From: a bacterium
Lineage (GTDB): Bacteria > Myxococcota_A > Bradymonadia > UBA7976 > UBA1532
Direction of reading: 5' to 3'
Length of the DNA: 44,015 bases
NCBI GenBank assembly: GCA_030427205.1
Contig: JAUHXC010000011.1
Location: 1 to 44,015 of the forward strand
This document shows positions 2,706 through 25,707 of this stretch, in pieces. The position numbers were made by a program, and so were the translations under genes. The notes under the pieces were generated by a model. That model was not told the origin of the DNA. It saw only the letters and a list, made by a program, of their open reading frames with translations, and did no database searches. Numbering within the stretch: the stretch's first letter is position 1; each line of letters starts with the position of its first letter.

Positions 2706-3980
2706 TCAGGGGGCGTCTTCGTCGTACGGCGCGGCCTCGGGCTGCGCCGGTATCGGATCGAGCGCGGGCGGGGCATCGGGGGTCGCGGGCGGGGCATCTT
2801 CGGGCGCGGTCGAGGGGTCGCCGGGCGCTGCGGGTGGCTCCGCGGGCGCCGCGGGCGGCGGTTCGGCCCGGTCGACGGCATTACGCAGCTGCTGCAGCGG
2901 GTCGACGGTGCGGGCGCGGAAGGCGGCGCGCAGCACCTCGGCGGACAAGCCGTCGGCCTGCTCGGCGTCGACGTGCGCCCCGTTGCCGGCGGCGGCGATG
3001 GCCCGATGCTGGGGGCGCACGAGGCGGTCGTGCTCGCGGGTGATGCCCCGGCGGCGGCCGTAGCCCGGCGGCGGGGTCGAGAGCATGTAGATCCGGCCGC
3101 CGGCGGCGGCGAAGCGGCGGGCGGTGTCGAGGCAGGGGCCCGCGCCGGGGTCGTCGGCGGCGGCGTCGCTGGTGGTGAGAATCAGCTTGATGGCGCCGGG
3201 TCGCCAGCGGGCCTTCTCCGCGGCGCCGAGGCCGCCGCAGAGCCACTCGGGGCGGTCGTCGTCGACGCCGGTGCTGGTGGCCTCGATGCCGGCGAGGAAG
3301 TCGGCGAGCTCGGCGGCGTCGGCGGTCAGCGGGTGCTGTTCGAGGCGCATGCCGGGGGCCTCGCGGCGGTCGCGGAAGACGATGGCGCCGACCCGGGCGG
3401 TGGGGCTGACGACGCGCAGGGTGTCGACGGTGGCCCGCAGGTTGCGCCGGGTGGCGTCGAGGCCGGCGGCCATGGACGCGGTGCCGTCGATGACGAGCAT
3501 GACGTCGACGGGGCGGGCGGTCAGCGGGTCGAGCTCGCCGAGCACGGCGCGCACGCTCTGGTCGAGTGCGGCGGCGCGTCCGCTGGCCTGCTGCGCCCGC
3601 TGCTCGCTGGTGGCCAGGGCGGCGGTGAGGGCCTCTTTGTCGGCGATGAGGCCGTCGCGCTCGGCGAGCAGGCGGTCGCGATCGGCCTGCAGGGCGGCGA
3701 GGGCCACGCTGGCTTCGCTGGCGGCGCCGCTGGCCCGGCGGGCGGCGGCCTCGGCGATCCGCTTGCGGTCGAGGGCGGCGATACGCGCCGATTCGGCTCG
3801 GGCCCGGGCCTCGGCCTCGGCCACCAGCGAGTCGCGGGCGTCGGTGAGCGAGGTGCGGATGTGCATCACCGCGACGAGGAAGAGCAGCAGCACGCAGCCG
3901 AGCGCGGTGGTCAGGATGTCGGCCAGCGAGGTGCCGAAGACCTCGGCGCCTCGGCGGCCGTCGCGGCGGCGGCGGCTCAT
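2706..3980 (-). CDS. MotB/ExbD/TolR-like single-TM protein (N-terminal Arg-rich cytoplasmic stretch, TM helix SLADILTTALGCVLLLFLV with the conserved Asp) followed by a periplasmic coiled coil, a von Willebrand factor A (vWA) domain (VMLVIDGTASM...) and a Pro/Ala-rich tail.
   Basis: The ORF track gives 2706..4670, but its first 230 aa are an Arg-rich out-of-frame read-through of the upstream gene. The true start is the ATG at 3980 (MSRRRRDG...), forming an ATGA overlap with the upstream stop at 3977-3979. The TM motif AD[IF][LM]T[TA]A resembles E. coli MotB YADFMTAMMAFF (recalled from memory) around the proton-conducting Asp32. The vWA block DGTASM plus downstream hydrophobic strands is typical. 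Confidence 0.7.
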   Translation of the reverse strand: MSRRRRDGRRGAEVFGTSLADILTTALGCVLLLFLVAVMHIRTSLTDARDSLVAEAEARARAESARIAALDRKRIAEAAARRASGAASEASVALAALQADRDRLLAERDGLIADKEALTAALATSEQRAQQASGRAAALDQSVRAVLGELDPLTARPVDVMLVIDGTASMAAGLDATRRNLRATVDTLRVVSPTARVGAIVFRDRREAPGMRLEQHPLTADAAELADFLAGIEATSTGVDDDRPEWLCGGLGAAEKARWRPGAIKLILTTSDAAADDPGAGPCLDTARRFAAAGGRIYMLSTPPPGYGRRRGITREHDRLVRPQHRAIAAAGNGAHVDAEQADGLSAEVLRAAFRARTVDPLQQLRNAVDRAEPPPAAPAEPPAAPGDPSTAPEDAPPATPDAPPALDPIPAQPEAAPYDEDAP

Positions 3981-5173
3981 CGCTCGGGCCCGAAGGGGCC
4001 GTCGTCGCTTTCGAGGTCGCCGTCGCCCATGGTGTAGGGGGTCGAGGTCTCGCCTTCGGGCAGGTCGAGCCGGGTCGAGGGGCCGACGGCGTAGCCCCGG
4101 GTCGGCTGGCGGGGGCGGGCCGGCGCGCCTTCGCGGCGCACGATGAGCGGCTGCTCGCCCTGGCGGCGCAGGGCGCCGAGCTCGTGCTGCAGCCGGGGCA
4201 GCGCGGCGCGGGTCTCGCGGGCGGCCTGCACCAGCTCGGTGACGGCGCCGTCGATGGGCGGCAGGGCTTCGAGGCGGCGGGCGACGGCGGCGAGCGCGGT
4301 GTCGATGGCCTGCATGCTGCGCTCGATGCGGGCGACGGTCTCGGCCTGGCGGTCGAGGGCGGCCTCGGCGGGGGTCTGCTGGGCGAGGCCGGCCAGGTCG
4401 AGGCGCTGCACGTAGCCGGCGCCCAGGTCGCGCTCGATGCGCTCGAGCAGGCGCTTGTCGCGGCCTTCGAGGCCCACTTCGAGCAGCTTGAGCGGCACGA
4501 CGAGCGCCAGGGCGAGCAGGGTGGTGTCGAAGGCGACCGCGAGCCCGGTCACCGCGGGGATGAGCGCGGCGAGGTCGTCGCCGACGCCGGTGATGACCCC
4601 GTCGAAGCTGGCGATGGCCCCGGCCATGCCGACGACGGTGCCCAGGAAGCCCGACAGCGGCAGCAGCCACATGGCGGCGGTGAGCGGGCGGTAGTCGTCC
4701 TCGACCCGGGCGTGGGCCCGGTCGACGGCCTGGGTGGCGGCTTCGAGCAGCTCGTCGCGGGTGGGGCGCTGGCTGCGGAAGTAGCTGAGGACGGCGTAGA
4801 GCACATCACCGGCGAGGGTGTCGCGCAGGCGGGTGAGCACCTCGAGGCGGCCGGGCAGCTCGCTGCGATCGACGGCGCCGTGCCGCAGCTCGCGGCAGGC
4901 GTCGAGGGCCCGGCGCTCGCCGGCGTGCACCACGAGGCGGCGCAGGATGTGGCCCACGCCCCAGAAGAAGAGGCCGACGGTCAGCGGCTGGCTGAAGCCG
5001 CGATCCCAAAGCAGCGTATGCAGCCGGGTCTCGGGGGCGAGCGCGTCGACGGCGAAGAAGAGCCCGGCGGTGCCGGCGACGGCGGCGAGCAGGGGGATGA
5101 AGCGGGTCCAGCCGCCGACGAGGGCGGCGGCGCCGCGGGAGGCGGTGAGTTGGCGGGGGTGGGCGATGTCCAT
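3977..5173 (-). CDS. MotA/TolQ/ExbB proton-channel family protein with 4 TM helices and a ~150-aa C-terminal cytoplasmic coiled-coil tail.
   Basis: Signature LLPLSGFLGTVVGMAGAIASF...AALIPAVTGLAVAFDTTLLALALVVPLKLL matches the MotA/ExbB TM3-TM4 channel motif. The ORF track start is 5233. The ATG at 5173 (MDIAHP) has a GGGAG RBS 6 nt upstream and is preferred. The stop overlaps the downstream start (ATGA). Confidence 0.75.
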   Translation of the reverse strand: MDIAHPRQLTASRGAAALVGGWTRFIPLLAAVAGTAGLFFAVDALAPETRLHTLLWDRGFSQPLTVGLFFWGVGHILRRLVVHAGERRALDACRELRHGAVDRSELPGRLEVLTRLRDTLAGDVLYAVLSYFRSQRPTRDELLEAATQAVDRAHARVEDDYRPLTAAMWLLPLSGFLGTVVGMAGAIASFDGVITGVGDDLAALIPAVTGLAVAFDTTLLALALVVPLKLLEVGLEGRDKRLLERIERDLGAGYVQRLDLAGLAQQTPAEAALDRQAETVARIERSMQAIDTALAAVARRLEALPPIDGAVTELVQAARETRAALPRLQHELGALRRQGEQPLIVRREGAPARPRQPTRGYAVGPSTRLDLPEGETSTPYTMGDGDLESDDGPFGPER

Positions 5174-5247
5174 GGGCGGCTCCCGCGGTGTGGGGTCGCC
5201 CATAGAATCAGCGGCGGGGGCCGATTTGTTCAACCGGCCCGCCGATT

Positions 5248-5425: not shown

Positions 5426-8400
5426 TTACATCGGCTCGCCGCAGAACGCGCCGAACTCGTCATCGACGCAGACGAAGTCGAAGTCGGCGCAGTTGTCGGT
5501 GAAGTTGACCCGGTACTCGCAGGTGGGCTGGCCGTCGTCGCCGACGACGCACTGCCCGTCGCCGCCGTAGAAGGCGACGGTGGTGGGGTCCTGGCAGAAG
5601 GCCGGCGGCGGGTCGAAGCAGAAGACGTCGGCGCAGGGGTCGCGCACGATGTCGAGGTCGATGGCCGCCTCGGCGGAGTAGCCGTTCTCGAGCCCGTCGC
5701 TGTCGCAATAGGCCCAGGTGCGCCCGCCGTCGACGCTGAAGCGGAAGGCCATGTCGTAGGCCCCGCTCACCGGCTGGCCGGGGTCGAACGAGGCGGTGTA
5801 CTCGTCGTAGGCGGGCGTGCCGCGGTCGTCGCCGTTGTAGCCGGGGGTGTCGATGGCCGGGGTCCAGCTCCAGTCGAGGTTGCCGGCGGGGTCCGATCCG
5901 CGCGGCCCGTAGCCGCCCTCGGCGACGAGCAGGCCGTCGAGGTCGACGAGCGGGGAGCGGTCGGTGATGCCGGCCTCGAAGACCAGGCCGGTGACTTCGA
6001 GCGGCGGGTTGAAGCCGCCGGCCTGCCACTCGGTGGGCACGACGGGGAAGTTGAAGCGGCAGTCGTCGACGGTGACGTCGACCTCGGGGCACTGCGGGTT
6101 GGGCAGGCCGGGGGTGCCGAGGTGGTCGAGCGCGGCGTCGCCGCCGGGGTCGGCGAAGTAGACCACCTCGCCGAGGCACCAGTTGATGCCCTCGTCGTTG
6201 GCGTCGAAGTCGTAGGCGTCGGGGTCGAGGCTGATCGAGGCCGCCGAGGCGTCGGGGAAGGTGAAGCCGTCGTCGTAGCCGAAGGTGTCGACGAGCGCCG
6301 CGCCGCAGTACAGGTTGAGCCGGCCGGCGGCGTTGGGCAGGGCGAAGTCGAAGGTCTGCGCGACCTGCAGCCCGCCGTTGACTTCGGGGTCGGCGGAGCG
6401 GGCGAGCAGCGCGACGCCGCCGGCGGCGAGGTTGATCGTCAGCCGGGTCGAGGCGCCGCCTTCGAGGCCCATGGTGCAGCCGTCGAGCACGAGGTCGCGG
6501 TCGGTGGTATTGGTCAGCTCGATCCACTCGGCCTGGTTCTCGGCGAGCACGCCCTGGGGGTCGTAGAGCATCTCGCTGAAGACCACGTCGCCCTCGCCGG
6601 CGATGGCGTCGGGCGATACGCAGCGCCCCGCGGCGCAGGCCTGTCCGATCGCGCCGCAGTCGACGAGGTCGAAGTCGTAATCACAGGTCGCGGCGTCGTC
6701 GACGATGTTGCACGTGCCGAGCGCGTGGTAGGCGGCGACGGTGGTGGCGTCGAGGCACTCGTCTTCGGGCACGTCGACGCACGGGTTGGGGTCGCAGGCC
6801 CCGAGGTTGTCGCCGCACGAGGGGTTGGGCTGCCCGGGGGTGCCGAAGTGCGGCGGGTCGCCGTCGAAGTAGGCCCCGGTGGCGTTGCACCACGCCTCGC
6901 CGAGGTCGTTGAGCTCGGCGTCGACGAAGTCGGGGTCGAGCTGGTAGGCCACCGCGGGGATGTTGCCCGGGAAGCCGGCGAGCGCGTAGTCGACCGCGTC
7001 GATGGTGGTCTGCCCGCAGCGCAGCTCGACGATGTCGCCGCCGTTGTTGAGGCTGAAGTTGAAGATGCCGTCGGGCGCGATGCCGCCGTTGGCCGCCGGG
7101 TTGAGCGAGCGGGCGAAGAGCAGGATCGCGTCGGCGGGCACGAGCAGGTCGCCCACCGCGAGCCCGTTGGCGCGGTCGCGCACCTCGCACCCGGCGAGGT
7201 CGAGCAGCTCGCCGCTGACGTTGATCAGCTCGAACCACTCGCCGGCCTGCTCGTCGATCTCACCTTCGGTATTGCGCTGGATCTCGTTGACGACGATGTC
7301 GCCCGGCTCGGGGGCCCGGGCGCCGGCGGCGTCGCAGAGGCCGTCGACGCAGCCGGCGGCCCCGCAGTCTTCGCGGATCTCTTCGGGCGGGATGCACACC
7401 GGCTCGCCGTCGACCGCTTCGCACGCGGTGACCCCGTAGCTGACGGCGACGTCGCCCTCGCAGAAGGCGGCGGGCGCGTCGGCGCAGGGGTTGGGGTCGC
7501 AGGGGTCGCCCGCCGGGCACTCGCGGTTGGGCAGCCGCGGGGTGCCGAGGTGCTCGGGGTCGAAGATGTAGGGGTCTTCGGCGAGGCACCAGTTGCGGCC
7601 GAGGTCGTTCTGCTGGGCGTCGAGCCGGTTGCTCGAGAGGTTGATCGAGGCCGCCCGCGCGTCGGGGAAGGCGCCGCCGTCGTCGTAGTTGACGGTGTCG
7701 ATCAGCGCGCCGTCGCAGCGCAGGTTGACCTCGTCGCCGCCGTTGGTCAGCGAGAAGTCGAAGGTGCCGTCGACCTCTTGCAGGCCGCCGTTGAGGATCG
7801 GGTCGTCGACCCGGGCGAAGAGCGCGTAGCCCCGCGCGGCGATCTCGACGCCGGCGATGGGGGTGCCGCTCGCCGAGTCGGCGATCTCGCAGCCGTCGAG
7901 GCTGAGCGGGGTGTCGGTGGTGTTGTACAGCTCGATCCACTCGGCGAAGTTCTCGTCGAGCCCGTTGTGCGGGTCGTAGAGGATCTCGCTGACGATGACC
8001 TCGCCCGGCGCGGGGAGCCGCGCCCCGCCGCAGGCGCCGTTGACGCACTGCGCGTCGACGCAGTCTTCGCGCTGCTCGGGGTAGTCGCAGGTGGCGAGGC
8101 CGATGGCGTCGACGCCGCAGACGCCCACGTCGGGGTAGGTCACGGCGGTGTTGCCGTCGCAGACGCTGACCGGCGGGTTCACGCAGGGGTTGGGCGCGCA
8201 GGGGTTGGCCGGCGGGTCGACCACCAGCCGCCCGGCGTCTTCGACCCGGTAGCCGTCCGACGAGCCGGCGTCGCCGCTGTCGCAGACCTGCCAGGTGCGG
8301 CCGCCGTCGACGCTGAAGCGGAAGGCGAGGTCGTACTCGCCGGGGATCGGCATGACCACGTCGGCGCGGTACTCGTCGTTATTGGGCTCGCCGAGCCCGC

Positions 8401-11400
8401 CGGCGCCGTCGTAGTCGGCGTTGGGGAAGCCGGGGGTCCAGACCCACTCGGGGTTGTCCATGGGCAGCGAGCCGTCGGGGCCGTAGCCCACCGCGGCCAG
8501 GATGAGCCCGGTGCCGTCGTTGAGCGGGCTGAGGTCGGTGATGCCCTCTTCGTAGATCCGGCCGTAGACGATCTGCACGGTCTCGAACTCGGCCTGCAGC
8601 TCGCTGGGGAACTGCAGCCGGCAGAAGTCGACCTCGCTGTCGCACGGCGGGTTGGGCGCGCCGGGCGAGCCCCACTGCGCCGGGTCGACCGAGTAGCGGG
8701 TGCGCGAGGGGCACCAGCTGGCCGGGTCGTCGTTGAGCGCGGGGTCGACGGCGCCGTCGCGCAGCTGGATCGAGAACCCGCGCACCGGCGGGAAGCCGCC
8801 GCGCTCGTCGTAGGTCACCGTGTCGACGATGATGCCGCCGCACGAGACGGTGAGGCTGTCGTCGGTATTGTTGAGGCCGAAGTCGAAGACGCCGCGCACG
8901 TTCTCCAGGCCGCCGTTGACCGCCGGGTCGGCGCTGCGGGCGAAGACGGCGTACTCGCCGACCTCGATCTCGACGTCGTCGGCCGGGCTCTCGTTGTTGG
9001 CGTCGGCGAAGACGCAGGTGCGCATCGACAGCGGCGCGTCGCTGGCGTTGTACAGCTCGAAGTACTCGGCGGTGTTGTCTTCGAGGCCGTCGTGCGGGTC
9101 GTAGAGGATCTCGGTGATGACCAGATCGCCGGGCAGCGGGTCGCGCACCTCGCCGCGCACGCAGGCCCCGTCGGCGCAGCCGAGCGGGCAGGCCGTGATC
9201 TCTTCGGCGTACTCGCAGACCGGCAGCCCGCCTTCGTCGGCGCAGGCGCCGACGGCGGCGTAGGCCACCTCGGTGTCGGCGTCGCGGCACTCGGACGGCG
9301 GCGGCTCGTCGCACGGGTTGGGCAGGCAGGGGTCGGCCGGGTCGCCGACGACGACGTGGCCGGCGTCGGCGGGCTGGTAGCCGTTGATCGAGCCCGGCTC
9401 GCGGTCGCAGAAGGCGTAGCTGCGGCCGTCGTCGGCGCTGAAGCGCCAGGCGACGTCGTAGCGGCCGGGCGGCAGGTCGGCGAGGGTCGCGCGGTAGGTG
9501 TCGGCGTTGGCGGCGTCGTTCTCCGGGTCGCCCTGGCCGACCATCCAGACCCAGGTGCGGTCCTGGGTGGGGTCGCTGCCCGCCGGGCCGTAGCCCACGC
9601 CGCCGCGCAGCCGCACGTCGGCGTCGACGCCGCGGCTGCGGTCGGTGATGCCGGCGGCGACGAGCAGCGCGGTGCTCTCGACGTCTTCGCCGAGCGCGAC
9701 GTTGGCCTCGTCGGGGCTGAGCAGGGTGCAGATCGTCAGCGTGGGGCAGCTCGGGTTGGGCCCGCCGGGCGTGCCGTGGTGGTCGCCGCCGGGCGCGTCG
9801 AAGTAGACCGGCAGGGTGCGGCACCAGTTGGCGCCGATGTCGTTGGTGAACGCGCCGGTCTGGTCGGGGTCGAGGGAGACGCTGTAGGCGGTCGCCGCGG
9901 GGAAGTTGCCGCCGACGTCGTAGGCCACCGCGTCGATCTCGACGCCATCGCAGGTCAGCGCGATGCGGTCGCCCTCGTTGCCCAGGCCGAAGTCGAAGGT
10001 GCCCTGGGCCTGCAGCCCGCCGTTGGCCGCCGGGTCGCCGTTGCGGGCGAGCAGCACGTAGCCGCCGGGCGCGACGTTGATCGCGCCGAGGGCCGAGGTA
10101 TTGCCGGCGTCGTCGCCGATGGTGCACCCGTCGAGGCCCACCTCGCGGTCGCTGGCGTTGTACAGCTCGATCCACTCGCCGTCGGCGTCGGCGAGGTCGC
10201 CGGTGGCGTCGTAGAGGAACTCGGTGATCACCGCCTCGCCCACCGCGGGCGGCGCGGCGGGCACGAAGCACTCGCCGTCGATGCAGCGGGCGCCGGGCGG
10301 GCATTCGAGCCGGTCTTCGGGCCAATTGCACTGCGCCTGACCGTCGACCGCCTCGCAGACGCCGGGGTCGCGGGGGCTGATGATGGTGACGCCGTCGTCG
10401 GCGCAGCGCGGCGCGGGCGGCGGCGGGCAGACGAAGCCGTCGCACAGGTCGCCGCCGACGGGGATGGCCTCGAGCTGGCCGGCGTTGCGCGGCTGGTAGC
10501 CGTCCTCCGATCCGGCGCCGAGGTCGCAGTAGGTCCAGGTCTCGCCGCGGTCGAGGCTGACCCGCCACGCGTAGTCGTAATCACCCGGCGCGGGCACGGT
10601 CAGCTCGGCGACGTACTCGTCGTTGTCGGGCTCGCCGCGGGCGGCGCCGTCCCACTCGGGGTTGCCGGCGCCGGCGACCCACTGCCAGTCGGCGTTGCCC
10701 GCCGGGTCGGAGCCGTCGGGGCCATGGCCCGCCTCGGCGATCAGCCCGGGGATGAAGTCGACCTCGGGCGTGTCATCGGTCCAGGTGGCTTCGTAGAGCA
10801 CGCCGAAGACCTCGAAGGTGGTGCCTTCTTCGGCGCGCACCGCCTCGGGGAACTGCAGCCGGCAGTAGTCGATGCTCGGCGGCGGGCAGGCGGGGTTGGC
10901 CGCGCCGGGCGTGCCGCGGTGGGCGCCGGCTTCGCCCGGCTCGCCGAAGTAGACGTCGCCGTCGGCGGCCGGGCACCAGCCGGGCCCGTCGTCGTTGGCG
11001 CCGGCGTCGCGCACCGACGGGTCGAGGCTCAGCGAGGCGCCCGAGACCGGCACGAAGCCGTTCTGGGTGTAGTCGACCTCGTCGACGTCGAGGCCGTTGC
11101 AGCGGATGCCGAACAGGTCGCCGTCGTTGCCGAGGCGGAATTCGAAGGTGGCGGCGACGTCGACGCCGCCGTTGACCTCGCGGTCGGCGCTGTGGCCGAG
11201 CACGATGCGCCCGCCGGCGGGGATGAGCCCGCCCGCGAGCACCTCGACGTTGCCGTCGTCGTAGACCTCGCAGCCGCCCAGATAGCGCGGGCCGTCGGCG
11301 AGGTTGAGCAGCTCGACCCACTCGGCGTCGCCGTCGGAGAGCGGGTCGACGGCGTCGTAGAGGATCTCGGTGATGATCACTTCGCCTTCGCCCGGGTTGG

Positions 11401-12559
11401 GGGCGAGGTCGACGCAGGCGCCCTGCTCGCAGCGGCCGCCGGCGGCGGCGCAGTCCTGGCGGCTCTCTTCGTCGTGGGTGCACTGCGCTTCGCCGTCGAC
11501 GGCTTCGCAGGCGCCGGCGGGGGCGTAGGTCACCGCGTCGTCGCCCTCACAGGCGGCCGGCGGCGCCTCGGCGCAGGGGTCGTCGTCGCAGGCGCCGGCC
11601 AGCGCGGTCAGGGTGCCGGTCTGCTCGTCCTGGAAGCCGTTCTCCGAGCCGTCGAGGTCGCAGCGCAGCCAGCTCGCCCCGCCGTCGAGGCTGAAGCGGT
11701 AGCTCAGCGCGTAGACCCCGGGGGCCGGCGCGTCGACGGTGGCGAGGTACTGGTCGAAGCCGGGGGCGCCGGCCTCTTCGGCGCTCCAGGCGGGGTCGGC
11801 CTCGGCGCGGGCCCACATGGGGGCGTCGGCGCCTTCGGCCATCCAGCCGGCTTCGGCGACGAGGTCGAGGTCGGCGTCGACGCCGTCGGTCAGGTCGGTC
11901 AGGCCGGCCTCGAAGACGCGGCCGGCGAGGGTCACCGGGCTGCCGGCGAAGACCTCGATCTCCGCCGGGCCGGCGAAGATGCAGGCGTCGGCGACGACGT
12001 CGGCCACGCAGCCGCCATCCTGGCAGGTCTGGCGGGCCGGGCAGGCCTGCGCGCTGCCCTCGTAGCGGCACTCGGCGCTGCCGTCGACCACCTCGCAGGT
12101 GCCGTCGTCGCCGAATGTGACCACCTCGCCGTTCTCATTGCACGCGGGGCCCGGCGGGCTGTCGCAGACCACGTCGGCGCAGAGGTCGACGTCGGCGACA
12201 CAGGTATTGTTGTCGAGGTCGCAGGTCTCGCCGTCGTCGCACTCGGCGTCGTCGGTGCAGCAGCCTTCGATCGGCTCGACGACGCACTCGCCCTCGACGC
12301 AGCGGCCCTCGCCGCAGACGGCGTCGACGGCGCATTGCACGTCTTCGGTGCAGGGCGGCGGCCCGACGTCGGGTTCGGGGCCGGGGTCCATGTCCGGCTC
12401 GGGTCCGGGGGTGACGTCGGGCTCGGGCTCCGGCGTACCGTCGGTCTCCATGTCGACGACCGGGCCGGTATCGGCCGCGGTCCCATCGCCGTCGTCGCAG
12501 CCGGCGGCGACCATCATCAATCCGATGGTCGCCAGGGCCACCCACGCTCTGCGCTGCAT
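5426..12559 (-). CDS. Giant (2377 aa) surface lipoprotein with ~6 tandem modules. Each module is a Cys-rich segment (CxxNPC...C...C), a lamin-tail domain (LTD; ITEILYDP.G.D..EWIELYN) and a conserved ~120-aa beta-rich domain (AGYGPDGSDP...DEY.A.L..P.PG.YD.AFRFS.DGG.TW..CD).
   Basis: Lipoprotein signal MQRRAWVALATIGLMMVAAGC (lipobox) starts at the ATG at 12559, with an AGGGGG RBS 5 nt upstream. The ORF track's upstream extension to 12646 is less likely. The LTD motif repeats about 6 times. The long plus-strand ORF 6122..12628 is an antisense artefact. Confidence 0.85.
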   Translation of the reverse strand: MQRRAWVALATIGLMMVAAGCDDGDGTAADTGPVVDMETDGTPEPEPDVTPGPEPDMDPGPEPDVGPPPCTEDVQCAVDAVCGEGRCVEGECVVEPIEGCCTDDAECDDGETCDLDNNTCVADVDLCADVVCDSPPGPACNENGEVVTFGDDGTCEVVDGSAECRYEGSAQACPARQTCQDGGCVADVVADACIFAGPAEIEVFAGSPVTLAGRVFEAGLTDLTDGVDADLDLVAEAGWMAEGADAPMWARAEADPAWSAEEAGAPGFDQYLATVDAPAPGVYALSYRFSLDGGASWLRCDLDGSENGFQDEQTGTLTALAGACDDDPCAEAPPAACEGDDAVTYAPAGACEAVDGEAQCTHDEESRQDCAAAGGRCEQGACVDLAPNPGEGEVIITEILYDAVDPLSDGDAEWVELLNLADGPRYLGGCEVYDDGNVEVLAGGLIPAGGRIVLGHSADREVNGGVDVAATFEFRLGNDGDLFGIRCNGLDVDEVDYTQNGFVPVSGASLSLDPSVRDAGANDDGPGWCPAADGDVYFGEPGEAGAHRGTPGAANPACPPPSIDYCRLQFPEAVRAEEGTTFEVFGVLYEATWTDDTPEVDFIPGLIAEAGHGPDGSDPAGNADWQWVAGAGNPEWDGAARGEPDNDEYVAELTVPAPGDYDYAWRVSLDRGETWTYCDLGAGSEDGYQPRNAGQLEAIPVGGDLCDGFVCPPPPAPRCADDGVTIISPRDPGVCEAVDGQAQCNWPEDRLECPPGARCIDGECFVPAAPPAVGEAVITEFLYDATGDLADADGEWIELYNASDREVGLDGCTIGDDAGNTSALGAINVAPGGYVLLARNGDPAANGGLQAQGTFDFGLGNEGDRIALTCDGVEIDAVAYDVGGNFPAATAYSVSLDPDQTGAFTNDIGANWCRTLPVYFDAPGGDHHGTPGGPNPSCPTLTICTLLSPDEANVALGEDVESTALLVAAGITDRSRGVDADVRLRGGVGYGPAGSDPTQDRTWVWMVGQGDPENDAANADTYRATLADLPPGRYDVAWRFSADDGRSYAFCDREPGSINGYQPADAGHVVVGDPADPCLPNPCDEPPPSECRDADTEVAYAAVGACADEGGLPVCEYAEEITACPLGCADGACVRGEVRDPLPGDLVITEILYDPHDGLEDNTAEYFELYNASDAPLSMRTCVFADANNESPADDVEIEVGEYAVFARSADPAVNGGLENVRGVFDFGLNNTDDSLTVSCGGIIVDTVTYDERGGFPPVRGFSIQLRDGAVDPALNDDPASWCPSRTRYSVDPAQWGSPGAPNPPCDSEVDFCRLQFPSELQAEFETVQIVYGRIYEEGITDLSPLNDGTGLILAAVGYGPDGSLPMDNPEWVWTPGFPNADYDGAGGLGEPNNDEYRADVVMPIPGEYDLAFRFSVDGGRTWQVCDSGDAGSSDGYRVEDAGRLVVDPPANPCAPNPCVNPPVSVCDGNTAVTYPDVGVCGVDAIGLATCDYPEQREDCVDAQCVNGACGGARLPAPGEVIVSEILYDPHNGLDENFAEWIELYNTTDTPLSLDGCEIADSASGTPIAGVEIAARGYALFARVDDPILNGGLQEVDGTFDFSLTNGGDEVNLRCDGALIDTVNYDDGGAFPDARAASINLSSNRLDAQQNDLGRNWCLAEDPYIFDPEHLGTPRLPNRECPAGDPCDPNPCADAPAAFCEGDVAVSYGVTACEAVDGEPVCIPPEEIREDCGAAGCVDGLCDAAGARAPEPGDIVVNEIQRNTEGEIDEQAGEWFELINVSGELLDLAGCEVRDRANGLAVGDLLVPADAILLFARSLNPAANGGIAPDGIFNFSLNNGGDIVELRCGQTTIDAVDYALAGFPGNIPAVAYQLDPDFVDAELNDLGEAWCNATGAYFDGDPPHFGTPGQPNPSCGDNLGACDPNPCVDVPEDECLDATTVAAYHALGTCNIVDDAATCDYDFDLVDCGAIGQACAAGRCVSPDAIAGEGDVVFSEMLYDPQGVLAENQAEWIELTNTTDRDLVLDGCTMGLEGGASTRLTINLAAGGVALLARSADPEVNGGLQVAQTFDFALPNAAGRLNLYCGAALVDTFGYDDGFTFPDASAASISLDPDAYDFDANDEGINWCLGEVVYFADPGGDAALDHLGTPGLPNPQCPEVDVTVDDCRFNFPVVPTEWQAGGFNPPLEVTGLVFEAGITDRSPLVDLDGLLVAEGGYGPRGSDPAGNLDWSWTPAIDTPGYNGDDRGTPAYDEYTASFDPGQPVSGAYDMAFRFSVDGGRTWAYCDSDGLENGYSAEAAIDLDIVRDPCADVFCFDPPPAFCQDPTTVAFYGGDGQCVVGDDGQPTCEYRVNFTDNCADFDFVCVDDEFGAFCGEPM

Positions 12560-12697
12560 CCGTCCCCCTCGTTCGCGTCTCGGTGGTTCGCGTCGTATTG
12601 GTCGATTCACGCGCGGATGATGTGGTGACGGCGCGATGCGAGTCAAACGACGGGTCGGTGACGGACGCGAGGGCGCGCGGCGCCGCGCCGAACGGGG

Positions 12698-13999
12698 TCA
12701 GAGCTTCTCGTAGTCGGCCGGCTCGTCGGCCGGCGCCGGGCGCTCGACGGGGCGCGCGTCCCGGGGTCTTACCGGGCGCCTCGGGCGGGGTCGCACCGGG
12801 CGCTCGGCGGGCGGGCGGGCAGCGGGCGTCGTCGTCTTGCGCGGGCGCAGGGGGCGGGCGGCGTCGGGCTTCGCATCGGGCGCCGCTGCGTCGACGGGCG
12901 CGGGCGCCGCGTCGGGCGCGGCGGCGTCGGGTACGGCCGCGTCGGGCGCGGCGGCGGCGGGCTGGGCGGCGGGCTGCACCGCGGCGGTCAACGGGTCCGC
13001 GGGCGGCGGCGCGGTCGTCGCCGGCGCGCCGTCGCGCAGCAGCAGGAAGACGACGACGATCGCCAACGCCGCCACCGCGGCGATCCAGGGCCACGGCGTC
13101 GGGCGGGCGGGCGGCGGCTCGAGCGGCGCGTCGATCGCCGGCCGCGCGCTGGGCGGCGGCGGGCCGTCCATGCGCGGCAGCGGGCCGGTGCTGACCATGG
13201 TGTCCGACATCGGCCGCCCGCTGGGGGTGAGCCCGATCGAGACCGCGCGCTCGATCGGACCGAGCACCGCGACCGCCGAGGGCGGGCGCTGGCCGGGCGA
13301 GCGACGGCAGAGCCCGTCGAGCACCTCGAGCAGCGGCAGCGGCACGCCGGGCAGGGGCCGATGGGCGGCCTCGGTGGGCGACAGGCCGCCGAGCAGCGCC
13401 CGGCCGATCACGCCCAGCGCGTACAGATCGGTGCGCGCCTCGACCGGCGCGGCGTCACGCTGCTCGGGCGCGGCCCAGGGGCTCGTGCCGTAGGCGAAGG
13501 GGGTCTCGGCCAGCCCGACGCCCGCGAGCCGCACGTAGTCGGCGCGGCCGGTCGTCTGCTGCAGCAGGATGCATTCGGGTCGCAGGCCGCCGTGAAAGAG
13601 GCCGCGTCCGTGGGCTTCGGCGAGCACCCGCGTGAGCTGGCGCAGGATGTCGGCGACCCGGTCGGGCGGCTGGGCCTGGCCCATCAGCGCGCTGAGCGGC
13701 TCGCCTTCGACGCGGCTCTCGACGAGATAGAGCCCCGTCTCGCCCGCGCCGGCGTCGAGCACCGGCACCACCGCGGGGTGGTCGAAGCCGACGACCCGCT
13801 GCAGGGTGCGCTTGAGGCGCATGGCCTCGGCGGTGCCGCCCGGCGCCTGATGCACGATCACCCGGCGCCCGGTGGGCAGATACACCGCCTCGTGCGATCC
13901 ATCGGCCCTGCGGTCGCCGAGTCGATAGCGACCGTCGAGCGTCACCCCGCCGAAGTCGGCGGTCTCGCGTCCTCTGTCCACGGGGGCAGCACACCGCAA
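12698..13999 (-). CDS. Membrane-anchored pseudokinase. It has a Ser/Thr protein-kinase-like fold with degenerate catalytic motifs (VIVHQ instead of VAIK; HGGLRPECILL instead of HRDLKPENIL; LAGVGLAE instead of DFG; APE and D.YALG retained). A TM helix (WPWIAAVAALAIVVVFLLL) and a Pro/Ala/Arg-rich tail follow.
   Basis: Kinase subdomain order recognisable, but the catalytic Asp, the DFG Asp and the VAIK Lys are all substituted. Confidence 0.65.
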   Translation of the reverse strand: MRCAAPVDRGRETADFGGVTLDGRYRLGDRRADGSHEAVYLPTGRRVIVHQAPGGTAEAMRLKRTLQRVVGFDHPAVVPVLDAGAGETGLYLVESRVEGEPLSALMGQAQPPDRVADILRQLTRVLAEAHGRGLFHGGLRPECILLQQTTGRADYVRLAGVGLAETPFAYGTSPWAAPEQRDAAPVEARTDLYALGVIGRALLGGLSPTEAAHRPLPGVPLPLLEVLDGLCRRSPGQRPPSAVAVLGPIERAVSIGLTPSGRPMSDTMVSTGPLPRMDGPPPPSARPAIDAPLEPPPARPTPWPWIAAVAALAIVVVFLLLRDGAPATTAPPPADPLTAAVQPAAQPAAAAPDAAVPDAAAPDAAPAPVDAAAPDAKPDAARPLRPRKTTTPAARPPAERPVRPRPRRPVRPRDARPVERPAPADEPADYEKL

Positions 14000-14059
14000 T
14001 TCGGGTGCCGGTGCAAGAAAGTCGAACGCCGCGCGGGGCGCCGTCGATCGGCGCGGTCG

Positions 14060-15322
14060 TCAGTCGCGGGGCGTGATGCGCAGCACCTGATGGTTCCAGG
14101 CGTCGGCGATCCACAGGTTGCCCTCGGGGCCGACCTCGATGCCCATCAGCGCGCCCTCTTCGAGGCCGGTGTCGAGGTAGTCGAGGACCTCGCCGGTGCT
14201 GATGGAGATGCCCCAGATGCGGCCGGTGGCGTTGTCGCCGACGAAGAGCACGTCGCCGTCTTGCGCCAGGCCGCTGGGCGCGAGCAGCTCGGGGTGTTCG
14301 AAGAGGGTCATCATCGGCGCGTGGTCGGTGACGAGGTTGAGCACGGTGCCCGGCTCGATGGAGGGCAGCCGCCGCTCTTCGGAGCCGAGGGTGGTGTCGA
14401 AGATCGCGACCCGGGCGTTGCCGGTGTCGGCGATGTAGAGCATCTTCTCGTCGTGGTCGAAGACCATGTGCGAGGGCACGTCGGGGGTGCGCTGCACCTC
14501 GCCGACGGCGTAGCGGGTGATGATGCCGTCGGAGTGGTCGTCGAAGCCGGGCCCGTGGTCGATGCGGAAGTCGTTGCGGGCGATGGAGCCGGTCAGCCCC
14601 TCGAAGACCCAGTAGATGTTGTCCCGCTCCCAGGCGATGCCCATGCACAGCGGCGACTCGTGCAGCATGTCGAGGTGCGAGCCGAGGTCGTCGCCAACGA
14701 ACGCCACCGCGTCGGGGTTGGTGCGGGCGTAGACGTCGAGGTCCGAGGGCCACAGCGACGGGCCCATGAAGTCGTTGGGCTCACCCTGGCCGTTGTAGGT
14801 GTTGCGCGACTCCTGGCAGGTGCCGAACGTGCCCGGCGCGCCGAAGTCGATCGACGAGACCTCCTCCATGAAGTGCAGCGCGAAGGGGTCGATGAGGTGC
14901 ACCGAGTCCTGCTCGGGCGTGCCCGGATCCCAGACGATGGTCGTCGAGTCGTCGAAGCGGTTGACGATCCACAGCTCGGGGGTCTCGCTGTGCGGGTTGA
15001 ACGCCAGGTCGCGGGGCACGGCGAGGCCGTCGGGGCGCCGCTGGACCATCGTGCGCATGCGCACGTTCGAGACGCTGTGGCCGCCGTTGCCGAGGATCGC
15101 CAGCCCGGCGGGCTCGGGCTCGGGCTCCGGTTCGGGATCGGCCTCCGGCTCGGGCATCGCCTCCGGCTCGGGCATCGCCTCCGGTTCGGGCATCGCCTCG
15201 GGCTCCTGGTCGCCGGGCGTGATGACGATCGGATCGTCGTCGCCGCCGCCGTCATCGGCGGGCGCGCAGCCCCATGCGGCCAGCGCCGCGAGCGTCAATC
15301 CCCAGAGCGCAGTTCGCTTCAT
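14060..15322 (-). CDS. Secreted beta-propeller (NHL-repeat-like) lipoprotein with an N-terminal acidic Pro-Glu linker (EPEAMPEPEAMPEPEAMPEPEADPEPEPEPEP).
   Basis: Lipoprotein signal MKRTALWGLTLAALAAWGC from the ATG at 15322 (AGAGGA RBS). The ORF track's long upstream extension to 17161 overlaps the opposite-strand peptidase gene and is rejected. NHL-type motif NLWIADAWNHQVLRI near the C-terminus. Confidence 0.65.
   Translation of the reverse strand: MKRTALWGLTLAALAAWGCAPADDGGGDDDPIVITPGDQEPEAMPEPEAMPEPEAMPEPEADPEPEPEPEPAGLAILGNGGHSVSNVRMRTMVQRRPDGLAVPRDLAFNPHSETPELWIVNRFDDSTTIVWDPGTPEQDSVHLIDPFALHFMEEVSSIDFGAPGTFGTCQESRNTYNGQGEPNDFMGPSLWPSDLDVYARTNPDAVAFVGDDLGSHLDMLHESPLCMGIAWERDNIYWVFEGLTGSIARNDFRIDHGPGFDDHSDGIITRYAVGEVQRTPDVPSHMVFDHDEKMLYIADTGNARVAIFDTTLGSEERRLPSIEPGTVLNLVTDHAPMMTLFEHPELLAPSGLAQDGDVLFVGDNATGRIWGISISTGEVLDYLDTGLEEGALMGIEVGPEGNLWIADAWNHQVLRITPRD
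15105..15215. repeat. Short 18-bp tandem DNA repeat (cggctcgggcatcgcctc, about 4 copies) encoding the EPEAMP linker inside the lipoprotein CDS; a potential length-variable tract.
   Basis: Direct repetition visible at 15120-15200. Confidence 0.6.
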
Positions 15323-23055: not shown

Positions 23056-25707
23056 CTACTCGCCCGGCTGGTAGGTCGACAGCGCGCGGGTCAGATCGGG
23101 CGGCAGCCGGCCGTCGGCGGCGACCAGCGGCTGCACCCGCGGGCCGAGCAGCAGGCCAGCGGTCGGGCCATCGACCGGCACCCGGGCCACCGGCACGTAG
23201 GGCAGCGCCTCGAGCAGCGCCTCTTCGATCTTGCCGTAGAGCGCGCCCCGCGCCGTGGCGTCGGTCGTGGCGGACGCCTCGCCGATCCATGCGGTGATCT
23301 CGGTGCCGTCGACGCCCGGGCCACGCTCGACGAGCCGGGCCAGCGTGCGCAGGAAGGGCAGCGGATCGCCGCCGATGCGGCCATCGGCCACCTGCACGAA
23401 GACCGCGTCGAGCTGCCGATCGGCCAGCGTCGAGCGCAGCTGGTCGCGGCTGATGATGCTGAGCACGACCTTGAGCCCGATCGCCCGCAGCTGCGAGGCG
23501 AGCACCCCGGCCACCGCCTGGTCGCCTTCGATGGTGCCGAGCAGCAGCGGCGCGGTGGAGTCCACCTCGGCCATCAGCGCCCGGGCCCGATCGAGGTCGT
23601 AGGCCAGGGCGTCGGCATCGGCAGCGAAGCCGAGCTGGCCCGCTTCGAGGATGCGGTGCTGGGGCTCGACCGCCCGGGCCAGCGCGCCGGCCAGCTTCGC
23701 CCGATCGAGGGCCAGCGCGATGGCGCGGCGGACGCGGGCGTCGCTCTGGGGTCCATCGCCGAGGAAGAGCAAGCCGTAGTGAGCCATGGCGCCGGCGTCG
23801 ACCAGCGGCGCCGCCCGCACCCGATCGGACGCCGCCTTCAGCGCCGGCTGCATCGCGCGCGGATCGGCGAACACCTCGGCCGCCAGCGGCACCCGGGCCA
23901 GATCGAGGCGTTCGGCGCTCACCGCCGCCAGCGCCGCCGCGGCGCTCTCGACGCGGTCGATGTTGAGCACGGCCGGGCCGGCGGTGTTCTTCCAGCGACC
24001 CTCGGCGGCGCGGACGAGGCGGTATTCGCCGTCGTGCGGCGCCGATTCGAAGCGGAAGGCGCCGCTGCCCACCGGGCGATTGAAGCGCCGCGGGTCGTCG
24101 CACTCGTCGATGCCGGCGGGCAGCAGCCGCACCGCGCCGAGCGGGTGCACCGCGTAGGCCCTCGGCCGGGTATAGACCACCTCGACGCCGCCGGTGGGCA
24201 GCGCGGTGACCGACCGCACCCCATCGTCGGCGAGGCCGGTGGTGAAGCGGCGGGCGTACTCGATCGACCACGCCAGATCGGCGTCGGCGGCCGGGCGGCC
24301 GCCTTCGACGCAGGGGTGATCGTGAAAGTGCACGCCCTCGGCCAGCGAGACCTGCACCCGGGTGCCGTCGGGGGCCGCCGTCCAGCGGCCCACCGCGCCG
24401 GGGGCCGGGTTGCCGTCGGGCTTGATGCGAACCAGCCGCTCGACGACGAGGTCGATGACCATCGAGGAGGCGCTGTCGGTCGCGGGGTAGGTCTCGAGGA
24501 TGCCGCGGTCGGTCGTCCAGCCCATGGTCAGCTCGAGCGGGCCGGCGGGCGCGGGCGCTGCGGGCGGCGCGGTGGGCTGGGGCCCGGGCGCGGCGGTCTC
24601 GGGCGCGACGCTCGGGGCCGGCACCGGCTCGGGGGCGCGCACGAACATCGCATACAGCGCGCCGAGGCAGCCGGCGAGCAGCACGCCCACCACCCCGAAG
24701 AGCAGCCAGTTGGTGCGCTGCTCCTGGCTCATCGGCGGCGGCGCTTCTTCTTCGGTGCCGTGGCTGATGATCGCGGTGGCGAAGACCGGCGTATCGTCGC
24801 CGCCGGGCCGCCGCACGATCGGCGCGCTGACCGCGCCGCTGAACGGCGCGATCGCCGCCCGCATGGCGCCCGCGTGCACGTAGCGATCGGAGGGTTTCTT
24901 GGCCAGCGACTTGTGGATCACCGCCTGCAGCCCCTCGGGCGCCACGTCGGCGTCGGGCGGGGTCGCGTCGCGGTGCTGCTGCATGATCGCGATGGCGCTC
25001 TTGCCGGTGAACGGCAGCCGACCCTGGATCAAACGGAAGAGCAGCACGCCCACCGCGTAGATGTCGGTCGCCGGGCCGATCTCCTTCTGGTCGATCTGCT
25101 CGGGCGCCATGTACGTCGGCGTGCCCAGGGTCAGGCCCATGCGGGTGATGCGCTTGCCCTGGGCGTCCTCCTCGAGGATGCGGGCGATGCCGAAGTCGAG
25201 CACCCGCACCGTCTCGCGGCCGTCGGGGCCGAGCACGAGCATGATGTTCGACGGGTTGATGTCGCGGTGCACGATGCCGCGGCCGTGGGCGTCCTGCAGC
25301 GCCTGCAATATCTGGGTGCACAGCTCGATGGCCCGAGCCACCGTCACCGCGCCCTCGCCGTCGAGCAGCTGCTGCAGCGAGCGCCCGTGGATGAGCTCCT
25401 GCACGATGAAGACGATGCCGTCGGGCTCTTCGCCGCAGTCGAGCAGCCGCACCGCGTAGGGGGTGTCCATCTGGGCCATGACCCGGGCTTCGCGCATGAA
25501 GCGCGCCCGGCTGGCCTCGGCGCTCTCGGCGTCGGTCAGCTGCGGGTGCAGCACCTTCACCGCCACCTCGCGGTCGGCGATGCGGGCGCGATAGACCGCG
25601 CCGAACGTGCCCTTGGCCAGGGGGGCCTGGATGATATAGCGCCCGCCCAGGGCCCGCCCGATGAGCGGATCGCTTTCGACGTTGGGGTCGTCCGGCGGCG
25701 TCACCAC
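23056..25707 (-). CDS. Ser/Thr protein kinase (catalytically competent: [23 protein letters not shown]) - TM helix - extracytoplasmic solute-binding protein family 5 (peptide/nickel SBP-like) domain.
   Basis: All Hanks kinase motifs intact in the N-terminal 290 aa. A single TM helix ([23 protein letters not shown]) follows. The C-terminal ~480 aa show the SBP_bac_5 pattern (MGWTTD...ETYPATD..., [15 protein letters not shown]). GTG start at 25707. Confidence 0.75.

Follow-up and report, generated by a model that had tools for sequence, protein, structure and literature searches.

The window analysed here is a stretch of bacterial DNA of 44,015 nucleotides. On its minus strand it carries a gene for a membrane-bound pseudokinase, which is followed directly by the gene for a giant lipoprotein with LTD domains and preceded by the gene for a beta-propeller lipoprotein with NHL repeats (Table 1). 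Both gene-order statements of the original prediction hold. It had placed the pseudokinase immediately upstream of the giant lipoprotein gene, and the Ser/Thr kinase with a periplasmic SBP domain, which it had reported from elsewhere in the window, could be assigned as an intact kinase with Pkinase and SBP_bac_5 domains.

The pseudokinase ORF has a coding-type composition (GC3 = 0.92) and can be read in a longer form from a TTG codon. The database copy of the protein (P0001) and all orthologues begin at the position equivalent to the GTG at 13981, the orthologues with MDRGRET.. or MNGGR.., and thus this GTG is probably the true start. Residue numbers are counted from the TTG at 13999 (433-aa form) unless 427-aa numbering is stated.

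Table 1. Genes, protein segments and promoter-like elements at the pseudokinase locus, in order of position.
Feature	Position	Strand	Evidence and remarks
Giant LTD lipoprotein gene	5426..12559	-	2377 aa; six LTD domains; lipobox VAAGC; Pfam LTD 6e-68, 6 stretches
LTD-gene promoter-like element GTCAC..CCGTCG-TTGACT-N18-CATCAT	12617..12662	-	Conservation; sigma-70-like match
Pseudokinase gene	12698..13981	-	427 aa from probable GTG start 13981; stop codon 12698-12700
Pseudokinase ORF, longer form	12698..13999	-	433 aa from TTG 13999
C-terminal Y-E-K-L-COOH	12701-12712	-	Invariant in the family
Periplasmic disordered tail	12701..13036	-	112 aa; 25% Pro, 29% Ala; pLDDT about 50; no secondary structure
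Single transmembrane helix WPWIAAVAALAIVVVFLLL	13037..13093	-	Hydropathy, flank charges, AF2
Juxtamembrane motif R262-P-M-S-D-T267	13199..13216	-	Consensus R[AP]M[SAG]D[TA]; R262, M264 and D266 invariant
Cytoplasmic Hanks-type pseudokinase domain	13235..13945	-	About residues 19-255; Pfam, phmmer, AF2, Foldseek, dN/dS
Retained APE motif A177-P178-E179	13463..13471	-	No variation within the family or the 60-sequence alignment
G160-V161-G162 in place of DFG	13514..13522	-	Multiple alignment with active kinases; orthologues G[VLI]G or ELG
H136-G137-G138 in place of HRD	13586..13594	-	Alignments; HG[GA] invariant in all orthologues
His50 codon at the VAIK lysine position	13850..13852	-	Aligns to RRVAVK of PknA; orthologues H/R/W/S
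Conserved intergenic element CTTTCTTGC..N..TTGCGGTGTG	13982..14021	-	Promoter-like; abuts the pseudokinase start codon
NHL-repeat beta-propeller lipoprotein gene	14060..15322	-	Pfam NHL; upstream neighbour in the closer clade
Pkinase-SBP_bac_5 kinase gene	23056..25707		Pkinase and SBP_bac_5 domains, intact

A kinase fold without catalytic residues

The kinase fold is supported by several lines of evidence. The protein matches the Pfam profile Pkinase (PF00069) with 38.6 bits at a cut-off of 31.7 (E = 1e-9), and a phmmer search against PDB yields PknA (3e-13) and PknB (1e-12) from Mycobacterium tuberculosis. The AF2 model has a pLDDT above 90 across about residues 20-250 (about 230 residues) and is bilobal. 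Its top Foldseek match is PknA (4ow8, E = 1.3e-15, TM-score 0.74 relative to the target), and PknA, PknI and PknF are matched at E-values of about 1e-13 to 1e-15. The skeleton of the kinase is kept, namely the His of HRD, the Asp of alphaF, and the Glu of APE together with its Arg partner in alphaI. Invariant structural residues within the family are H136, D191, E179, R238 and D82. On the back face of the N-lobe, R24 and D82 are retained as equivalents of R10 and D76 from PknB. The most invariant patch of the head is RRSPxQRPPSAVAVL, which spans alphaH-alphaI. Retention of the fold and of the APE motif, as originally predicted, is thus borne out.

The per-motif inspection of the kinase alignment, which had been proposed as a check, revealed that the catalytic motifs have been replaced. 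VAIK is represented by V47-I-V-H50 and HRDxKxxN by H136-G-G-L-R-P-E-C143, so that the catalytic-loop Lys has become Arg140 and the catalytic Asn has become Cys143. The substitutions of the VAIK Lys, the HRD Asp and the DFG Asp had all been recognized in the original prediction, but the DFG triplet, given there as VGL, is GVG and had been shifted by one residue.

Further losses became evident in addition to those noted before. The Gly-rich loop is missing and the Glu of alphaC is replaced by Thr65. The segment between beta3 and alphaC is shorter by about 7-8 residues, the activation loop after GVG is shorter by 15 residues, and the alphaG region has likewise suffered a 15-residue deletion. The catalytic triad, the Gly-rich loop and the alphaC Glu, which together characterize active Ser/Thr kinases, are lacking here and in all orthologues. 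With the VAIK Lys, the HRD Asp and the DFG Asp missing while the fold is kept, the protein corresponds to the sequence definition of a pseudokinase.

Orthologues and purifying selection

Ten orthologues with 45-77% sequence identity originate from Myxococcales MAGs and metagenomes. Eight of them were found in a search of 5.8 billion proteins and one is a GTDB genome locus; the tenth is the window protein itself in its database copy. An intact catalytic motif, which would have spoken against the original prediction, is found in none of the ten. In all of them, HRD is represented by HG[GA] and DFG by either G[VLI]G or ELG, and V-[IVR]-[VLM]-[HRWS] is the family pattern at beta3. The former catalytic positions drift among the orthologues, with H, R, W or S at the Lys position and C, D, S or A at the Asn position, as would be expected of a cleft that is not used. 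Within the first 251 residues, 88 positions are invariant.

For two close pairs, dN/dS was computed by the Nei-Gojobori method. The kinase-like domain has values of 0.10 (P0006/P0007) and 0.13 (P0005/P0008), while the tail has values of 0.38-0.93 in the same pairs. Values for distant pairs climb to 0.3-0.6 and were discounted, because a GC3 of about 95% compresses the synonymous sites and because of saturation. Purifying selection thus acts on the dead domain, and random decay or a sequencing error is therefore excluded. This is in line with the original prediction, which had considered the pattern not to be random decay and had proposed to check if orthologues keep the substitutions. With substitutions that are conserved and a domain that is under purifying selection, the pseudokinase has been retained for function.

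The family is discrete. In the search of 5.8 billion proteins, eight orthologue clusters are followed by a gap in E-value from 1e-63 to 1e-17, and an exhaustive HMM search recovered only 3 family representatives among 1.84 billion. Protein, HMM and GTDB searches revealed no orthologues outside a few uncultured Myxococcales lineages. The family descends from a lineage of active myxobacterial kinases with which it shares a QQxxGxxDYVK hairpin. The heads of a distant subfamily (P0200) are about 35-40% identical.

Membrane topology and genomic neighbours

The transmembrane helix comprises 19 hydrophobic residues (303-321, mean Kyte-Doolittle value of 2.6) and is modelled by AF2 as a helix at 297-316 (427-aa numbering). 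In all orthologues it is flanked by Arg on the N-side and by acidic residues on the C-side, which points to an N-in orientation. The kinase-like domain lies in the cytoplasm, and behind it come the single transmembrane helix and a periplasmic tail. The designation as a membrane pseudokinase is thus confirmed by the kinase-fold matches, the lost catalytic residues and the hydrophobic helix. The juxtamembrane motif stands out in a linker which is otherwise variable and has a pLDDT of about 50. A similar motif, AMSLTD, occurs in the distant P0200 subfamily.

Across the family, the tail is 100-140 aa long. Its first half is acidic and its second half is basic. Among the ORFs of 80 aa or more that the window and the fetched loci (about 300 kb) contain, only members of the pseudokinase family terminate in YE[KR]L-stop. 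C-termini from the distant P0200 subfamily are YERL, YLRL or YQRL, so that Yx[KR]L-COOH is kept. This conservation suggests that the YEKL-COOH terminus may have a functional role.

An LTD gene follows the pseudokinase in six of the eight lineages that have readable downstream sequence. Orthologous LTD genes (51-52% identity) are found at loci L001 and L004, homologous LTD N-termini at L005, L010 and L011, and the gene is absent downstream of the pseudokinase in the P0003/L015 and P0009 lineages. Upstream, orthologues of the NHL lipoprotein gene occur in the closer clade at L008 (80% identity), L011 and L015 (73%). In the more distant clade the pseudokinase is preceded by genes for a TPR protein and a small lipoprotein; tblastn at 1e-3 detected no homologue of either one in the 44-kb window. 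No universal neighbour of the pseudokinase exists across the loci compared.

Two intergenic elements are conserved. The one adjacent to the pseudokinase start codon is preserved in the alignment of the window with L011 and L008 and also in the more distant clade; it may be a promoter, which would imply a very short leader or none. A sigma-54 promoter, for which CGGCAC-N5-TTGC just upstream of the pseudokinase start is a good match, was considered and rejected, because its GGCAC half is conserved neither in L011 nor in L008; the conserved bases fit instead a sigma-70-like element that abuts the start. The element in front of the LTD gene is the sole sigma-70-like match in its region and is nearly invariant in five orthologous intergenic regions which have otherwise diverged. 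As the LTD gene has a conserved promoter-like element of its own, co-transcription with the pseudokinase is not implied, and the link between the two genes may be only loose.

The window also codes for a HAMP-SpoIIE (PP2C) phosphatase. A gene of the MotA/ExbB family, with its own MotB-like partner, is found 7.5 kb downstream of the pseudokinase both in the window and in L004. The Pkinase-SBP_bac_5 kinase was considered as a conserved partner kinase, but no orthologue is found near the pseudokinase at any other locus; a kinase in L015 matches it at the domain level only (40% identity). A role in anti-phage defence was considered and rejected, since the PADLOC and NCBIfam matches of the pseudokinase (PD-T4-6, MkoA, MAD6, PglW) are generic kinase-domain matches far below the family cut-offs; the neighbouring genes gave no matches to PADLOC or NCBIfam. 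Pairing with an ECF sigma/anti-sigma system was also rejected, as no sigma-70 r2 or r4 domain occurs among the scanned window genes or in the Pfam lists for the orthologous loci.

Proposed role and relation to known pseudokinases

We consider it likely, though with considerable reservation, that this bitopic inner-membrane Hanks-type pseudokinase has been selected for a non-catalytic role in protein interaction; almost certainly it would neither phosphorylate nor bind ATP. A scaffold or an adaptor that functions without catalysis is most likely, and we infer the "scaffold or allosteric" role in the same sense as the original prediction. Although the small family itself is undescribed, its kind is well known, as pseudokinases are established as common in bacteria. 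EssB/YukC and MviN are examples of transmembrane pseudokinases in which each of the three motifs is degraded and which serve as scaffolds (PMC12599244, PMC9600267).

The cytoplasmic head may act as a rigid docking or allosteric module in which the kinase skeleton has been retained. The tail would be long enough for crossing the periplasm, and its C-terminal YEKL peptide could dock on a partner in the envelope. The best candidates for this partner are the products of the adjacent genes: the giant LTD lipoprotein or the one with NHL repeats and, for the other clade, the TPR protein and the small lipoprotein. In this way the pseudokinase would link a structure in the envelope or at the surface with partners in the cytoplasm, comparable to the scaffolding of the type VIIb secretion system by EssB/YukC.

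A more specific version of this proposal is a long shot. It would be a new type of trans-envelope tether, in which a dead kinase head carries a TonB-like polyampholyte Pro spacer and an invariant Y-x-[KR]-L-COOH terminus that plugs into an outer-envelope partner, either the giant LTD surface lipoprotein or the neighbouring periplasmic TPR or NHL proteins, in some lineages alongside an adjacent motor of MotA/ExbB and MotB-like-VWA proteins. If this were true, a pseudokinase fold would report or control, across both membranes, what state a surface structure is in.

Among the alternatives, the one that survives best is a function in Hanks-kinase signalling, as a decoy, substrate or allosteric partner without tethering to the envelope, so that the tail would be a spacer only. 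The head might use the back face of its N-lobe to dimerize with an active receptor kinase, for example the Pkinase-SBP_bac_5 protein, or phosphorylated Thr267 might recruit an FHA protein as in MviN, which provides a precedent (PMC12599244). The retained R24 and D82, an invariant TGR turn at the position equivalent to L33 of PknB, the conserved juxtamembrane motif, and the presence of an active kinase and a PP2C phosphatase in the window are consistent with such a function. However, neither an active kinase nor an FHA gene is syntenic across the orthologous loci, Thr267 is replaced by Ala in P0002, and the invariant YEKL terminus is left unexplained, so that we regard this function as possible but rather unlikely.

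It is far less probable that the protein is an atypical active enzyme, either a kinase with relocated residues (WNK-like) or a fold repurposed for AMPylation as in SelO or for glutamylation as in SidJ. There are precedents (PMC12599244, PMC6858067), polar residues near beta7-beta8 (Q147, Q148, R152, D154, R157) are invariant, and two distant relatives, P0150 and P0200, retain one Asp each (HGD/DPG and DVG). However, active myxobacterial kinases already have the hairpin that is invariant here as QQxxGRxDYVRL (P0125: IQQLRGEPDYVKVLDFG); it is inherited from them and is thus not a new active site. In addition, no cleft position has a conserved Lys or Asp, the Gly-loop is missing, the ex-catalytic positions drift, and the activation segment, which would bind the substrate, has been cut short. 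That an ordinary receptor Ser/Thr kinase is decaying here as a pseudogene, or has been altered by a sequencing or assembly artefact, might account for the joint loss of many catalytic residues in sequences which all come from MAGs or metagenome contigs; in one of them (P0008/L004) the C-terminus is frameshifted and the LTD gene is split. In practice this is refuted by ten independent assemblies, in which the ORF is intact and carries identical substitutions as well as the three shared deletions, by the low domain dN/dS (0.10-0.13), and by the invariant C-terminal motif.

The non-catalytic scaffold or adaptor that we favour extends a known class and does not introduce a new principle. Bacterial pseudokinases are numerous, yet hardly any has a known function, and a recent review lists seven annotated bacterial families, none of them myxobacterial (PMC12599244). 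The family described here exemplifies them cleanly: degradation is complete, purifying selection is clear and the architecture is simple. Experimental follow-up is limited as all members are from uncultured organisms; a particularly sharp handle is provided by the invariant four-residue motif that ends the periplasmic spacer and by the recurrent giant LTD lipoprotein neighbour. A partner, if found, would reveal how a diderm bacterium employs a dead kinase domain as a transmembrane adaptor.

A close architectural parallel is with EssB/YukC from the type VIIb secretion system of Firmicutes (PMC9600267, PMC12599244). Both proteins are bitopic and begin with a cytoplasmic pseudokinase, after which one transmembrane helix follows, both have degraded versions of the three catalytic motifs and the Gly-loop together with a shortened activation loop, and both are a scaffold, presumed or proven, for an envelope machine. 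However, EssB has a folded extracellular domain and is encoded in a T7SSb operon (EssC, EsaA, WXG100), whereas the protein described here has a disordered tail with YEKL and a diderm host. Pfam scans of the window genes revealed none of the T7SSb genes (EssC/YukB FtsK-type ATPase, EsaA, WXG100), and EssB is absent among the best 60 sequence matches and the best 50 fold matches, where the closest folds are the active kinases PknA, PknB and PknF.

MviN (Rv3910)/ActPs3 (PMC12599244) is also a membrane-associated Hanks-type protein with three degraded motifs, an activation-loop deletion and conserved residues of the N-lobe dimer interface. It is actinobacterial, fused to a lipid II flippase (MurJ/MviN), and has the replacements VALT, LSIDH and Y--, while the pseudokinase analysed here is a stand-alone protein of 427 aa with one transmembrane helix, HG[GA] and G[VLI]G, and thus falls outside ActPs3. 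The GLW family of Proteobacteria (PMC12599244; bioRxiv 10.1101/2025.01.12.632604) has likewise lost all three catalytic residues and has its transmembrane helix C-terminal to the pseudokinase domain. As defined in PMC12599244, that family is characterized by GLW at HRD and LLLL/W in beta3, and these are not present here (HG[GA], V-x-x-[HRWS]).

The tail resembles TonB, in which a single N-proximal transmembrane helix precedes a Pro-rich spacer whose first half is acidic and whose second half is basic, and a MotA/ExbB-family gene is nearby. However, a TonB C-terminal domain and an SHLS-type transmembrane motif are lacking, and the cytoplasmic part is a pseudokinase of 250 aa rather than a few residues. 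Membership in the TonB family was rejected, as Pfam and NCBIfam gave no TonB_C match, and the likeness concerns the composition of the spacer only. Pseudokinases are also found in Myxococcus xanthus, where they account for 11 of the 99 STPKs according to PMC6791715 (citing Perez et al. 2008). Like the family described here, they are degenerate Hanks-type members of the expanded myxobacterial kinome.

Kinase fold and catalytic motifs

The pseudokinase gene was confirmed on the minus strand at 12698..13999, reading from TTG, with a GC3 of 0.92 that is typical of coding sequence (GC of the window: 73%). A length of 427 aa is most likely, as the database copy of the protein and all orthologues start at the GTG at 13981 (MDRGRETADFGG...); residue numbers used here count from TTG (433 aa), as was implicit in the original prediction.

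The proposed retention of the kinase fold is well supported. The Pfam Pkinase match (38.6 bits, gathering score 31.7, E = 1e-9) spans only profile positions 54-198, and phmmer against PDB sequences aligned residues 18 to 208 with PknA (3e-13) and PknB (1e-12) from M. tuberculosis. An AF2 model computed from a 60-sequence alignment has pLDDT >90 at about residues 20-250, with strands and helices in the order expected for a kinase. In the PDB, Foldseek ranks PknA first (4ow8, E = 1.3e-15, TM-score 0.74 relative to the target) and then PknI, PknS, PknF, and PknG.

Motifs were called from HMMER alignments to PknA/PknB and from a MAFFT alignment that contains the active kinase from the window and two active kinase domains of the myxobacterial type. 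In place of the Gly-rich loop (GxGxFGxV) stands D-G-S-H-E-A-V, VAIK has become V-I-V-H50, the alphaC Glu is replaced by T65, HRDxKxxN corresponds to H136-G-G-L-R-P-E-C143, and DFG to G160-V-G162. The VAIK Lys and the HRD Asp are thus replaced as had been claimed. This also holds for the DFG Asp, but the triplet VGL assigned to it was offset by one residue, the equivalent being GVG. Compared to active kinases, 15 residues are deleted from the activation loop and another 15 at the alphaG site, while the beta3-alphaC segment is 7-8 residues shorter. The structural skeleton is invariant in the family: the HRD His (H136), the alphaF Asp (D191), APE (A177-P-E179) with its partner, the alphaI Arg (R238), and the alphaC-beta4 motif HP...D.G.

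Membrane anchor, tail, and possible role

The pseudokinase has an N-in anchor formed by one TM helix, a disordered periplasmic tail, and an invariant C-terminal tetrapeptide. A linker modelled with low confidence follows the domain; within it, the motif R[AP]M[SAG]D[TA] is conserved (R262, M264, and D266 are invariant). The membrane location had been predicted; in every orthologue, the single hydrophobic helix (residues 303-321) has Arg residues at its N-side and an acidic flank at its C-side, which places the head in the cytoplasm and the tail in the periplasm. The tail (102-144 aa, Pro and Ala about 25% each, pLDDT about 50) is acidic in its first half (net -5 to -10) and mostly basic in its second half (net -1 to +21 when the family and the distantly related P0200 subfamily are taken together). 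Apart from the frameshifted P0008, every core-family orthologue has a tail ending in [DSA]-Y-E-K-L-COOH; the ending in the P0200 subfamily is YERL, YLRL or YQRL. No other ORF of 80 aa or more, in the window or in the fetched loci, has such a C-terminus. As the rest of the tail is the least conserved part, the obvious candidate for a functional element in the periplasm is this terminal peptide.

We propose that the head may be a docking or allosteric module and that the tail would contact an envelope partner via its YEKL-COOH end, with the syntenic LTD lipoprotein as leading candidate. The main alternative is a role that is equally non-catalytic but confined to cytoplasmic kinase signalling, by N-lobe dimerisation or by phosphorylation of a juxtamembrane Thr. 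The family-invariant R24 aligns with the Arg of 'DRY/GRY' in PknA/PknB (PknB R10) and D82 with PknB D76, two sites in the N-lobe back-to-back dimer interface of PknB. The same point about this interface has been made for the pseudokinase MviN (PMC12599244). However, purely cytoplasmic signalling leaves the invariant C-terminus unexplained.

In functional terms, the nearest precedent is the transmembrane pseudokinase EssB/YukC, a monotopic protein that acts as scaffold of the type VIIb secretion system (PMC9600267, PMC12599244) and likewise has degraded versions of all three motifs, of the Gly-loop, and of the activation loop. MviN is a further precedent. The defining features of EssB/YukC, MviN, and the proteobacterial GLW family are not found in our protein. 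[quoted passage not shown] Our protein therefore represents a kind of family already known, but the family itself is new and very small; it is not one of the seven pseudokinase families annotated so far, which include no myxobacterial one. Judged from sequence, a specialist would be mildly surprised only by the tail ending in Yx[KR]L-COOH and by the synteny with the LTD gene.

Conservation and origin of the family

A search of 5.8 billion proteins identified eight orthologue clusters (P0002-P0009, 45-67% identity), without exception from metagenome assemblies or Myxococcales MAGs; a gap in E-value from 1e-63 to 1e-17 separates them from ordinary kinases. When 1.84 billion representatives were searched exhaustively with an HMM, only three belonged to the family, and two distant single-domain relatives (P0150, P0200) were found in addition; 185,579 GTDB species representatives contributed one more orthologue (L015, 77% identity over the domain). 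No orthologue has intact motifs, in line with the original prediction: all carry HG[GA] at HRD and G[VLI]G at DFG (ELG in P0009).

By the Nei-Gojobori method, domain dN/dS is 0.096 for the pair P0006/P0007 (dS 0.19; tail 0.38) and 0.128 for P0005/P0008 (dS 0.05), where the tail value of 0.93 is inflated because the C-terminus of P0008 is frameshifted. Values are higher in more distant pairs, in which the synonymous sites are subject to saturation and compositional constraint. At the sequence level, the protein is a fully degraded, non-catalytic Hanks-type domain under purifying selection. Decay or an artefact is unlikely, given these domain values and substitutions common to all orthologues.

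The VAIK-Lys position is occupied by H/R/W/S and the catalytic Asn position by C/D/S/A, and therefore the cleft positions drift while the scaffold does not. A hairpin preceding the DFG position (LQQTxGRxDYVRL) is invariant in the family. As it also occurs in active kinases of the lineage, such as P0125 (IQQLRGEPDYVKVLDFG, with GxGxxG, K, HRD, and DFG all intact), it is ancestral and not a new active site; this, and the drifting cleft, make cryptic enzymatic activity unlikely. The three deletions are also found in P0150 (HGD...K, DPG) and in the P0200 subfamily (H[YH]G, D[VL]G); each still keeps one Asp, which suggests that the motifs were lost by stepwise degradation.

Gene neighbourhood and intergenic elements

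Features around the pseudokinase and in related loci
Feature	Position	Strand	Remarks
NHL lipoprotein	window 14060..15322	-	first in gene order, before pseudokinase
Pseudokinase upstream element	window 13982..14021	-	CTTGC...TTTG..TGTG; also L011, L008, far-clade loci
LTD upstream element	window 12617..12662	-	GTCAC-N-A-N-CCGTCGTTTGACTC, 17-18 nt later CATCAT or CATAGT
Giant LTD lipoprotein	window 5426..12559	-	six LTD domains; next after pseudokinase
MotA/ExbB-family protein	window 3977..5233	-	after LTD gene
VWA protein	window 2871..3971	-	MotB-like TM segment, coiled coil, VWA domain; after MotA/ExbB gene
eCIS_core protein	window 973..2625	-	last in gene order
Pkinase-SBP_bac_5	window 23056..25707	-	active Ser/Thr kinase
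Second giant gene	window 28282..35004	+	2240 aa
HAMP-SpoIIE	window 36060..37940	+	PP2C-type membrane phosphatase
TPR protein and small lipoprotein	L001 8064..9952; L005 4847..6678; L007 2584..4415; L010 1..1175		far clade, upstream of pseudokinase
Pseudokinase locus L004	10001..18765		Myxococcales MAG GCA_020633515.1
MotA/VWA pair	window 2871..5233; L004 18843..21016	- (window)	70% and 62% identity

As predicted, the pseudokinase gene lies directly upstream of the LTD gene, and this pair recurs in L011, L001-3, L004, L005/6, and L010; the pair is absent in the P0003/L015 lineage and in L007 (L009 is too short to tell). Upstream of the pseudokinase, members of the closer clade (window, L011, L008, L015) have the NHL lipoprotein; in the more distant clade, this position is always taken by a signal-peptide protein with C-terminal TPR region and basic tail and a small conserved lipoprotein (VEAPPPE..RPGPSPEEAAG.VP.LVD.LP....P.GF.AP..PDDPRP), neither of which has a homologue in the 44-kb window. 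The recurrent neighbours are all envelope proteins, but none is universal. In L004 (P0008), the pseudokinase C-terminus is divergent, probably frameshifted, and lacks YEKL, the gene call is truncated at the N-terminus, and the LTD gene is split into ORFs of 410 and 1859 aa, all of which likely reflects errors in the assembly or local decay in this MAG.

The spacer upstream of the LTD gene (130-200 bp) contains a strikingly conserved GTCAC..CCGTCG-TTGACT-N17/18-CAT[CA][AG]T in addition to a GGGGAG-ATG start. The element is nearly invariant in the L001, L005, L010, and L011 spacers despite diverged flanks. Hence, the LTD gene seems to be served by a promoter of its own, and the element is likely a promoter plus an operator for some regulator. 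The pseudokinase upstream element ends only a few bases before the start codon and a Shine-Dalgarno sequence is absent there, which suggests a leaderless transcript or a very short leader. A sigma-54 promoter match at this start is not conserved and was rejected.

The active kinase with SBP domain predicted elsewhere in the window does exist, but shows no linkage to the pseudokinase in other genomes. It may form a phospho-signalling pair with the HAMP-SpoIIE phosphatase, also without synteny to the pseudokinase.

The MotA/ExbB-family protein (418 aa) has a long C-terminal coiled-coil-like extension, and the VWA protein (367 aa) has FGTSLADILTTALG as MotB/ExbD-like TM segment. Their genes, directly downstream of the LTD gene, look like an uncharacterised stator-like two-gene module, for which PADLOC gave zero matches. 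The adjoining eCIS_core protein (550 aa, PF13699, E = 9e-22) has a HEXXH-like domain that is frequent in toxin/effector proteins. The only Pfam domains of the 2240-aa protein are TPR repeats, located in its C-terminal third. The NHL lipoprotein carries an acidic Pro-Glu repeat after the lipobox (three PEPEAM units, then PEPEADPEPEPEPEP), which causes spurious weak matches to TonB, SslE, and PARP profiles.
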